Assembly: GCA_965230925.1 (NCBI GenBank)
Contig: OZ246403.1
Location: forward strand, 68,360 to 132,359
Source of the DNA: an uncultured Candidatus Saccharibacteria bacterium
GTDB taxonomy: Bacteria > Patescibacteriota > Minisyncoccia > Phycocordibacterales > JACOZG01
Reading direction: 5' to 3'
DNA length: 64,000 nucleotides
Below, one piece after another: positions 532-63,036 of this stretch (its first letter is position 1; each line of letters begins with the position of its first letter). A program made the position numbers and the translations under genes. Below the pieces are notes generated by a model. The model was not told the DNA's origin. It saw nothing but the letters and a program-made list of their open reading frames with translations, and searched no databases.

Positions 532-542
532 ACCTGTCAGAC

Positions 543-571
543 TTGACAGGATTTACAGGGTATGCTAATAA
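543..571 (+). promoter_or_regulatory. Sigma70-like promoter: TTGACA, 17-nt spacer, TAATAA
   Basis: ttgaca at 543-548, a 17-nt spacer, and taataa at 566-571, upstream of the CDS at 652. Confidence 0.5.
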
Positions 572-651
572 TAGGGGCAGACGGAAAAGGTGCGCAGTTC
601 AAATGTTGAATTTGTGGCTTATTTCCGAAGGTTTCCTGAGTGGGAGAATCT

Positions 652-35204: not shown

Positions 35205-35277
35205 GCTAAGTTTGCCTCATTAGAATAGAGGCCAAAATTCGCTCTGGTTTACTTCCCGAGCGGATTTTGTTTTTTTG

Positions 35278-35323
35278 TGGACCCAGCGAGAATCGGACTC
35301 GCGCCTCGGCAATGCGAATGCCG
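35278..35323 (-). other. tRNA 3'-half-like fragment (anticodon arm with CGC loop, T-arm, 3' acceptor strand) with no 5' half
   Basis: Minus-strand CGGCA-TTCGCAT-TGCCG AGGC GCGAG-TCCGATT-CTCGC TGGGTCC A. No matching GGACCCA 5' acceptor strand or D-arm upstream. Confidence 0.4.
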
Positions 35324-35377
35324 CGTAACCCGCCCGCAACGCCTGAGCGCGTAGCGATGGCGGGCGGGTACCACCTG

Positions 35378-35450
35378 TGGACCGTGCCGGAATTGCACCG
35401 GCGACCTCTCGAATGCGAATCGAGTGTTCTACTAACTGAACTAACGGCCC
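35378..35450 (-). tRNA. tRNA-Ala (anticodon CGC)
   Basis: Minus strand: acceptor GGGCCGT/ACGGTCC with G3:U70, anticodon loop TTCGCAT, T-arm GCCGG-TGCAATT-CCGGC. 73 nt. Confidence 0.8.
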
Positions 35451-61581: not shown

Positions 61582-61987
61582 TATGGCAACGCAAACCAAA
61601 AATTATTTCGAGGCGGTAGGCCGGCGCAAAGAGGCAATTGCCCGCGTGCGCTTAACCCCTCAAGCCAAACAGGAAATCACTGTAAACGGGAAGCCGGTGC
61701 AAACTTATTTTCCTACGGCTGATTGGCGAGAACAAATTACGAAGGGACTAAGAGATGGTGCAGTGGAGCAAAAGTTTGGGATCACTATTCAAGTGAAAGG
61801 TGGGGGAACTCACTCGCAAGCTGAAGCCAGTGCTCATGGCTTAGCCCGCGCCCTACTTTTGTTTAATCCTGAACTCCGGATTGCCTTAAAGAAAGAGGGT
61901 AATCTCCGCCGCGACCCACGAGCCAAAGAACGCCGCAAATTCGGTCTCAAAAAAGCCCGCAAAGCCCCACAGTGGTCAAAGCGTTAA
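61574..61987 (+). CDS. rpsI: 30S ribosomal protein S9
   Basis: C-terminus RRDPRAKERRKFGLKKARKAPQWSKR. Confidence 0.9.
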   Translation: MSNMATQTKNYFEAVGRRKEAIARVRLTPQAKQEITVNGKPVQTYFPTADWREQITKGLRDGAVEQKFGITIQVKGGGTHSQAEASAHGLARALLLFNPELRIALKKEGNLRRDPRAKERRKFGLKKARKAPQWSKR

Positions 61988-62010
61988 TTCTCCACTTTTA
62001 CTTACTCTCA

Positions 62011-62036
62011 AAAACGGCCCAACTGGGCCGTTTTTC
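62011..62036 (+). terminator. Rho-independent terminator
   Basis: cggccc aact gggccg followed by ttttt. Confidence 0.75.
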
Positions 62037-62067
62037 CGTCCTCACGCTTAACAACTTATAAAAATGC

Positions 62068-62095
62068 TTGACAGGAAAATTGATTCATGTATACT
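62068..62095 (+). promoter_or_regulatory. Near-consensus sigma70 promoter (TTGACA, 16-nt spacer, TATACT)
   Basis: ttgaca at 62068-62073 and tatact at 62090-62095. Confidence 0.55.
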
Positions 62096-62099
62096 ATCG

Positions 62100-62433
62100 G
62101 GCAGATGTTGACCACCACGCGATGGTCACGAACCAGCCGGTAAGCTTGATTAAATGGTTCACTTACTAGACTGATGAGAGTAGTGCACAGGTAACTGTGC
62201 CCTCGAACCTGATCCCGGGACTGCAGGGAGGGATGCTCGCCATGAGTCTAACTTGGCAAAATCCTCGAGACGGTCGAGGGCATGATGGAAGGATGCGGAA
62301 ACCACGGGGCGCCGCTAAGATCTCCACCATGACACAACGCACCAACCCTGAACCAAATAGTTCTTCGAACTAGATCAAGGGGTTTTGTAACCCACAACAC
62401 CGCTGGAGCAATTTTGCCCAGCGGTTTCTCTTT
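62100..62433 (+). ncRNA. Candidate noncoding RNA of about 330 nt, bounded by a promoter and a terminator; identity unresolved
   Basis: No ORF over 46 aa. Internal hairpins (gtgcacag gtaact gtgccc; ctcgagacggtcgagg). Terminator ccgctgg..ccagcgg followed by tttctcttt at 62400-62433. Confidence 0.4.
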
Positions 62434-62446
62434 GCTAAAAATTGAA

Positions 62447-62474
62447 TTGACTTTTTTTGAAATCGGTGTAAGAT
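62447..62474 (+). promoter_or_regulatory. Sigma70-like promoter for grpE (TTGACT, 16-nt spacer, TAAGAT)
   Basis: ttgact at 62447-62452 and taagat at 62469-62474, 10 nt before the ATG at 62485. Confidence 0.45.
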
Positions 62475-62484
62475 TGGCGGGCTT

Positions 62485-63036
62485 ATGGAGGAACATGATG
62501 AAGAAATTGTCCCCGAGGACGAGAATGAAATGGGCGAGGCCGCCATTAAGAAATTGCGTGAGCGGGTGAAGCGGGCGCTGGAGGAAAAGCAAGAATATCT
62601 CGATCTCTCGCAACGACTGAAGGCAGATTACTTAAATTTAAAGAAAGAAACGGAAAGAGAAAAAGGAGAGATCAAAAGTTGGGCGACGGCAAACGTCTTA
62701 CTTGAATTATTAGGAGTCGCCGACAGCTTCGAGATGGCGCTCGGCAATAAGGAATCGCTGAAGCAAGTTCCGGAGAATTGGTTGAAAGGTGTAGAATATA
62801 TTTATCAAAAATTACAAAGCGTTTTTAGAGATCACAAGCTGGAGGAGTTTAAACCAAAACCGGGCGATACTTTTAATCCCGAAACGGAGCAAGCGGTAGA
62901 ACAAGTGGCTACTGATGAGGAAGACAAAGATAATACAGTTACCACAGTGATTCAGGCGGGTTATAAATTGCATGGGAAGGTGGTCCGGCCGGCGCAGGTG
63001 AAGGTCGCGAGTTGGCAATTAGAAAAAAATAATTAA
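62485..63036 (+). CDS. grpE: Nucleotide exchange factor GrpE
   Basis: Coiled-coil N-terminus and the GrpE core (ANVLLELLGVADSFEMAL). Confidence 0.8.
   Translation: MEEHDEEIVPEDENEMGEAAIKKLRERVKRALEEKQEYLDLSQRLKADYLNLKKETEREKGEIKSWATANVLLELLGVADSFEMALGNKESLKQVPENWLKGVEYIYQKLQSVFRDHKLEEFKPKPGDTFNPETEQAVEQVATDEEDKDNTVTTVIQAGYKLHGKVVRPAQVKVASWQLEKNN

Follow-up and report, generated by a model that had tools for sequence, protein, structure and literature searches.

The 64,000-nt stretch of DNA analysed here (the window), from an uncultured, ultra-small bacterium of the Patescibacteria, closes with the gene cluster rpoA-rplQ-rplM-rpsI, followed by grpE and dnaK. No other part of the window that lacks an open reading frame (ORF) of at least 70 aa is as long as the 497-nt gap between rpsI and grpE. 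Genomes of this group usually have grpE behind rpsI, and the gap is mostly shorter than 200 nt. Within it lies a unit of about 330 nt that runs from a promoter to a terminator and has a GC content of 52.7%, compared with 48.1% for the window. An earlier note had proposed it as a structured non-coding RNA. The features of the junction are the following:

61583 to 61987, + strand: rpsI (ribosomal protein S9), the ORF that closes the rpoA-rplQ-rplM-rpsI cluster
62010 to 62035, no strand assigned: intrinsic terminator of rpsI, a perfect 11-bp hairpin between A5 and T5
62068 to 62095, + strand: promoter of the unit, with −35 element TTGACA, a 16-nt spacer and −10 element TATACT (11 of 12 consensus positions)
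62096 to 62104, + strand: conserved transcript start ATCGGGCAG, from the alignment with the allele of the related locus L134
62105 to 62398, + strand: body of the unit, an orphan sequence that lacks a credible ORF and for which searches gave no DNA or protein relative
62233 to 62373, + strand: ORF with a ribosome-binding-like motif, read from the ATG at 62233 (46 aa) or at 62242 (43 aa)
62399 to 62433, + strand: intrinsic terminator of the unit, a hairpin at 62399-62425 followed by UUUCUCUUU
62447 to 62474, + strand: promoter of the grpE operon, TTGACT-16-TAAGAT (9 of 12 consensus positions)
62485 to 63036, + strand: grpE (Pfam PF01025), with dnaK next and dnaJ past the end of the window

In the identical contig L127, rpsI is a called gene with a match to Pfam PF00380 and its homologues were found, and downstream of grpE there were matches to PF00012 and PF00226 as well. 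The rpsI terminator hairpin has a folding energy of −17.5 kcal/mol (z = −6.0) and is kept in L130, L131 and L134-L137; it is symmetrical and hence could potentially be used in both directions.

The unit promoter was compared with all promoter-like sites on both strands of the 64-kb window. Only six sites matched the consensus at 11 or more of 12 positions, five of which were intergenic, and given this rarity the unit promoter is not background. Over 95 nt its region shares 85% identity with that of L134/L136; L130 and L131 also keep the −35 and −10 elements. Retention of the promoter at RpsI identities of 65-68% (L131, L134/L136) and a GrpE identity of 61% (L130) argues for selection on it, and its near-consensus form across these relatives argues that the sequence behind it is transcribed. 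From the distance to the −10 element, transcription is predicted to start at about 62100-62103. The similarity to the L134 allele stops exactly after position 62104.

At the other end of the unit, the terminator hairpin consists of an 8-bp stem, a bulge and three further pairs (−18.8 kcal/mol, z = −5.2) and is followed by the T-rich tract listed above; with an outer loop of more than 8 nt it escapes a terminator consensus scan. Downstream of this terminator grpE has its own promoter, which is nearly invariant in L081, L129, L130 and L134-L137. The three signals described in the earlier note, i.e. a near-consensus promoter right after the rpsI terminator, an intrinsic terminator at about 62400-62433 and a separate grpE promoter beyond it, are therefore all present at this junction.

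Two side observations concern promoters. The grpE promoter region, TTGACTTTTTT.AAAATCGGYGTAAGATTG (window 62447-62476, L081 2952-2981, L129 172-201, L130 1124-1153), is almost invariant although the GrpE proteins share only 61-72% identity; this conservation exceeds what a bare promoter needs and an operator may lie inside, with the CIRCE element being absent from the region. Another strong promoter at window positions 541-580, CTTGACAGGA-...-AATAAT then GGGGCAGA, resembles that of the unit, CTTGACAGGA-...-TATACT then ATCGGGCAGA, in its −35 context and first transcribed bases, and the likeness may reflect a promoter and initial-transcript architecture common in this genome or may be a coincidence.

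The statement that no ORF exceeds 46 aa holds for ATG starts but not once GTG and TTG starts are counted, which yields ORFs of 58 aa on the + strand (62197-62373) and of 59 and 48 aa on the − strand. An additional minus-strand ORF of 121 aa (62248-62613) runs antisense into grpE. When the ORFs were scored by codon log-odds trained on the long ORFs of the window, all ORFs of the unit fell within the range of spurious out-of-frame ORFs. Only the ORF of 43-46 aa has a ribosome-binding-like motif, GGGAGGG at 62226-62232, 9 nt upstream of the second ATG. A codon score as low as that of this ORF was seen in only 2-3% of genuine 46-codon windows, and on these sequence measures we judge it to be non-coding, a weak candidate for a gene at most. 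The six translated frames were concatenated and searched against 5.8 billion proteins, giving no relative at E≤0.01, and no Pfam domain was found in the six frames. An exhaustive search of the 58-aa ORF against 1.84 billion representative proteins gave four matches, all to long proteins and each in 5-7 stretches; these were dismissed as inflated by repeats, both of the two proteins inspected being tandem-repeat proteins. Public assemblies of this genome have no gene call in the unit. The unit has its own promoter and terminator, lacks credible coding capacity and stands apart from its neighbours, as expected of a stand-alone small RNA (sRNA) gene.

Four perfect Watson-Crick hairpins lie in the body:

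62109 to 62128, + strand: hairpin UGACCA-N8-UGGUCA, −7.0 kcal/mol
62185 to 62200, + strand: hairpin GCACAG-GUAA-CUGUGC with a GNRA-type loop, −10.3 kcal/mol, z = −3.3
62263 to 62279, + strand: hairpin CCUCGA-GACGG-UCGAGG, −9.6 kcal/mol, z = −2.7
62358 to 62372, + strand: hairpin UAGUUC-UUC-GAACUA, −3.8 kcal/mol

The number of such hairpins (at least 6 bp) in the 300-nt body was compared with 1000 dinucleotide shuffles, in which 0.48 ± 0.69 were expected (p ~ 0.001), and the several local hairpins reported for the segment are thus commoner than chance. The same density was reached at one further place in the window. This is the region at 150-550, which has 4-5 perfect hairpins of at least 6 bp per 300 nt, including TCGAGTTCGAGTTTGAACTCGA at 297-318, in or beside the overlapping ORFs at the start of the window and without an Rfam match.

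That the RNA is structured is suggested by the local hairpins but not by the overall fold of the + strand. Without the terminator, the body has an ordinary minimum free energy on the + strand (z = −1.28; 36 control windows from the same genome had a mean z of −0.29, a standard deviation of 1.05 and a minimum of −2.25), and the − strand folds better than the transcribed one (z = −2.75). With the terminator included, both strands are below the shuffles (z = −2.8 for the + strand and −3.6 for the − strand). The local hairpins are real, and these energies do not demonstrate a compact global fold. An RNA from the minus strand was considered and rejected, since no promoter-like site was found for it and no T-tract follows the 62399-62425 hairpin in that direction. 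Pairing of the unit with the translation-start regions of the genes in the window was also calculated using RNAduplex; the best energy was within the range of the shuffles, and the method is too permissive for this purpose.

With regard to known RNA families, Rfam 15 at the gathering score gave five tRNA matches and no others in the whole window, and ARAGORN found six tRNA genes. The window contains two adjacent tRNA-Ala(CGC) genes according to ARAGORN (35277-35350 and 35377-35450, − strand), of which only the second is listed at the Rfam gathering score. The Rfam comparison that the earlier note had named as a check was run at E≤10 with relaxed filters on both strands of 61950-62520 (571 nt) and gave no family for the unit; the output held only two terminator look-alikes, both on the rpsI hairpin, although a terminator-like match of as little as 16.7 bits was listed at this setting. 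The size of the unit had raised the possibility of a housekeeping RNA. The two bacterial RNase P models, RNaseP_bact_a and RNaseP_bact_b, were unmatched at the gathering score and also at E≤10 on both strands of 61950-62520. No tmRNA was found in the window by ARAGORN, nor any match to an Rfam tmRNA family at E≤10. Both bacterial SRP RNA models were unmatched at E≤10. A 6S RNA was rejected on the absence of an Rfam match, on length (about 330 nt versus about 180-200 nt) and on a predicted fold that is multi-branched rather than rod-like.

Inspection by eye gave the same outcome as the earlier note had reported, i.e. no RNase P P4 pairing and no tRNA-like ends of a tmRNA. In RNase P RNA, P4 is formed by CR-I (GGAAAGUCC-like) and CR-V (ACAGAA.CCGGCUUA-like), with the specificity domain between them. 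The nearest candidates in the unit, the CR-I-like GGAAACCACGGGG at 62296-62310 with the CR-V-like ACACAACGCACC at 62333-62350, lie some 25 nt from each other, lack complementarity and were rejected. A CCACCA at 62326 lacks a preceding T-arm, and no tRNA-like 3' end was seen in the unit. A hammerhead-like arrangement, CUGAUGAG at 62171 followed by a hairpin and CGAAC, failed the core rules, as C occupies position 15.1, a G would fall at position 17 and stem I cannot form; the Rfam hammerhead models had no match in the unit. A type I toxin-antitoxin system was likewise rejected, the ORFs of 43-59 aa being all non-hydrophobic and no minus-strand promoter being found. It is correct that no RNA of these kinds (RNase P RNA, tmRNA, 6S or SRP RNA) is found elsewhere in the 64-kb window at the Rfam gathering score, but the window makes up about 9% of the genome and this lack is therefore uninformative.

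No relative of the body was found in any of the collections searched. Homologues were absent from 80 genome loci and from 126 loci when nhmmer and blastn were used, and altogether from 143 related loci, from phage, plasmid and viral collections and from protein-space proxies. The phage and plasmid collections did not match the unit, nor did viral contigs in two exact-pattern scans, and blastn found no second copy of it in the window. Smith-Waterman comparison of the body with the sequences that occupy the same position in relatives, calibrated on shuffles, gave no signal, and tblastx and blastn against these sequences found shared flanks only. The public copies of the locus (L127 and L128) are 100% identical to it, and metagenome assemblies with this contig stem from runs SRR12822863 and SRR12816581. 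Sampling of the lineage is sparse: it is represented by a single genotype, with the same GrpE on five contigs of which the longest is 715,934 nt. The most similar other GrpE proteins have identities of 72, 68 and 61%, and the best RpsI relative has 68%.

The sequence between rpsI and grpE differs among related genomes. L134 and L136 share with the window the rpsI terminator, the unit promoter and ATCGGGCAG, behind which an unrelated sequence follows: a unit of 105 nt that has a terminator and a 13-codon ORF behind a strong ribosome-binding site, in a gap of 275 nt (L134 1602-1876). L081, L132 and L133 have a 109-nt gap without a unit, which is a two-deletion derivative of the L134 allele and has lost the promoter. 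In L135 and L137 an orphan gene of 204 aa occupies a gap of about 870 nt (L135 1372-2233). The 109-nt, 275-nt and ~870-nt alleles occur within one species, as the RpsI protein (P0121) is identical, and this species comes from the Hainich groundwater wells H43, H51 and H52 and from GCA_964361825.1. L130 retains the rpsI terminator and also the promoter, here driving a pair of orphan genes that encode 103 and 52 aa. Its close relative L131 has other sequence behind the promoter, with an ORF that is open at the contig end, and L129 has a different, unrelated non-coding stretch with a terminator. All the cargo genes of these relatives are orphans without a family match.

The sequences compared indicate that the rpsI-grpE site is a hypervariable slot between two core operons, with part of the expression signal lying in the conserved flank. 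Since presence and absence of the cargo are polymorphic within one species, the cargo is dispensable.

Other sequences were noticed at this junction in more distant genomes. Among Paceibacteria, L140 (3103-3708) has a gene for a DUF7282 protein (Pfam E = 2e-10) and L032 (4384-5180) has two small ORFs that are RelE/ParE-type toxin-antitoxin-like by eye only. Just 3' of rpsI, L022 (4470-4640) and L037 (4432-4590), also from other Paceibacteria, share a non-coding motif, CGCAAGACCTTTTGAGA-[variable hairpin]-TCYAAAAGGTGTAC..CTGTAAGG (nhmmer E = 7e-4), in which 3 of 23 predicted pairs are changed on both sides; it has no Rfam match at the gathering score and is unrelated in sequence to the unit of the window. 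L011 may have an analogous helix.

Since it is insulated from both rpsI and grpE and has no credible coding capacity, the unit is most simply read as an independent non-coding transcript. This part of the original proposal stands, while the housekeeping identity that was suggested along with it does not. We tentatively regard the unit as a lineage-specific, independently transcribed accessory non-coding RNA, to which, judging from sequence features, we assign a probability just below even. Transcription would start near 62100 from the strong sigma-70-type promoter, and the Rho-independent terminator some 330 nt further on would release an RNA with at least four short stem-loops. As cargo, this RNA would at present fill a hypervariable islet that lies between the rpoA...rpsI and grpE-dnaK-dnaJ operons. 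The rpsI terminator is inherited there together with the promoter and the initial transcribed bases, while the body is exchanged, shortened or lost among close relatives. We infer that the RNA is made and stable and acts in trans as a dispensable accessory RNA at the strain level, outside core physiology.

The main rival is that the body is a functionless remnant, i.e. decayed cargo such as an eroded small gene cassette that is perhaps still transcribed, which we consider unlikely but with a considerable share of the probability. The cargo differs in every relative and is wholly lost in L081, L132 and L133, where the promoter has decayed too, and what the relatives carry are orphan genes without a family match; the ordinary global fold of the + strand agrees with decay, and a GC content near that of coding DNA would suit a formerly coding sequence. 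Against this, protein similarity is undetectable in every frame, the enrichment of hairpins is unexpected for decayed coding DNA, and a near-consensus promoter and an intact terminator persist in a genome of about 0.7 Mb. Useless DNA is usually purged from genomes that small. That the transcript is instead the mRNA of an orphan small protein, with the ORF of 46 or 43 aa (62233 or 62242 to 62373) translated from GGGAGGG, has in our estimate a low probability. Cargo behind this promoter is normally protein-coding, its homologue preceding a ribosome-binding site and an ORF in three relatives (L130, L131 and L134), and the spacing of the Shine-Dalgarno-like motif to the second ATG would suit translation. 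However, by codon usage the ORF groups with spurious ones, its peptide would be hydrophilic and basic with low complexity, two very large protein searches gave no true homologue, public assemblies lack a gene call, and a 5' leader of about 140 nt is long for so small a gene.

Two further readings would tie the unit to its surroundings or to core functions. A role in heat shock or in regulation of grpE had been suggested from the gene context, and the unit could in principle be a cis-acting leader or attenuator of grpE-dnaK-dnaJ, with the 62399-62433 terminator being conditionally bypassed so that the strong promoter boosts the chaperones. The unit lies directly upstream of grpE in the same orientation, and two segments (62252-62262 and 62298-62310) are complementary to the 3' arm of the terminator, but such complementarities are roughly at chance level for 330 nt (four seen versus an estimated 1.5-2 expected). 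A riboswitch or attenuation leader was rejected on the position of the conserved grpE promoter, which lies between the terminator and the gene and is kept in relatives that have no unit; the closest relatives thus regulate the same operon without the unit sequence, and no riboswitch or leader family in Rfam matched. The suggested link to grpE is not upheld, and we hold the leader reading to be quite improbable.

Very improbable, and the least probable of all the readings, is a housekeeping RNA (RNase P RNA, tmRNA, 6S or SRP RNA) so diverged that the Rfam models miss it. The size is suitable, no such RNA was found elsewhere in the window (uninformative, as noted, for about 9% of a genome), and in bacteria of the Candidate Phyla Radiation (CPR) it is known that RNase P RNA can score below the default thresholds: in 10 of 35 circularised CPR genomes the RNase P RNA was found only with sub-threshold scores (PMC8172020). 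Those diverged RNAs, missed by default, were recovered at lowered thresholds and kept core features such as P4 (PMC8172020). The unit in contrast gave nothing at E≤10 with relaxed filters, is negative for tmRNA by ARAGORN, lacks by eye both the P4 pairing and a tRNA-like 3' end, and has a body that is absent from the relatives examined; its slot is empty or otherwise filled in the nearest relatives and is polymorphic within a species, and an essential RNA gene is not expected at a site that is polymorphic for presence and absence in a sister species.

The accessory non-coding RNA thus remains the reading we prefer. A more specific version of it, in which the junction is a promoter-anchored slot where unrelated small cargos are swapped and the cargo here is a new and functional RNA, about 330 nt long, with multiple hairpins and from no known family, has a low though appreciable probability; such an RNA may play a role, for example, in host or phage interaction. 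If real and functional, the unit would add a lineage-specific non-coding RNA to the ultra-small uncultured bacteria, whose regulatory RNAs are to our knowledge almost unknown. It stays a candidate that occurs in one genotype and is without homologue, and it has no bearing on long-standing questions. The promoter-anchored variable slot is more interesting than the unit itself. It indicates that a junction of core operons can serve as a variable slot in reduced genomes, one promoter being combined with different small cargos, and given that its contents differ among strains of one species, the site would be useful as a marker of strain-level accessory functions.

Compared with known systems, the unit resembles stand-alone bacterial sRNA genes in having its own sigma-70 promoter, a Rho-independent terminator, no ORF, stem-loops and insulation from its neighbours, and many such genes are strain- or species-specific. 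It differs from most base-pairing sRNAs in its length of about 330 nt, and belongs to no named family as it has no known homologue; we see in it a candidate for an ordinary kind of gene, an as yet unplaced stand-alone bacterial small RNA. With the diverged RNase P RNAs of CPR bacteria, which also fall below the default Rfam thresholds, it shares a similar length and the group of organisms (PMC8172020), but those RNAs are recoverable (PMC8172020) whereas the unit gives nothing at E≤10 and lacks the core motifs.

The slot can be compared with two further systems. As in integrons, where cassettes lie behind the Pc promoter, interchangeable cargo follows one conserved promoter, but the resemblance is one of layout only: there is no integrase, the cargo is single rather than an array, and each cargo has its own intrinsic terminator. 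No GTTRRRY core site was seen by eye at the slot junctions inspected. Variable islets between core operons, such as those holding accessory or toxin-antitoxin cassettes, are also similar to the rpsI-grpE site in that conserved flanks enclose differing content. The unit differs from the content of such islets in being non-coding, and neither a recombinase nor repeats or attachment sites were noticed at the slot. What sets the rpsI-grpE slot apart from the usual islets is that the promoter and the first transcribed bases lie in the conserved flank, with the consequence that different cargos share an inherited promoter.
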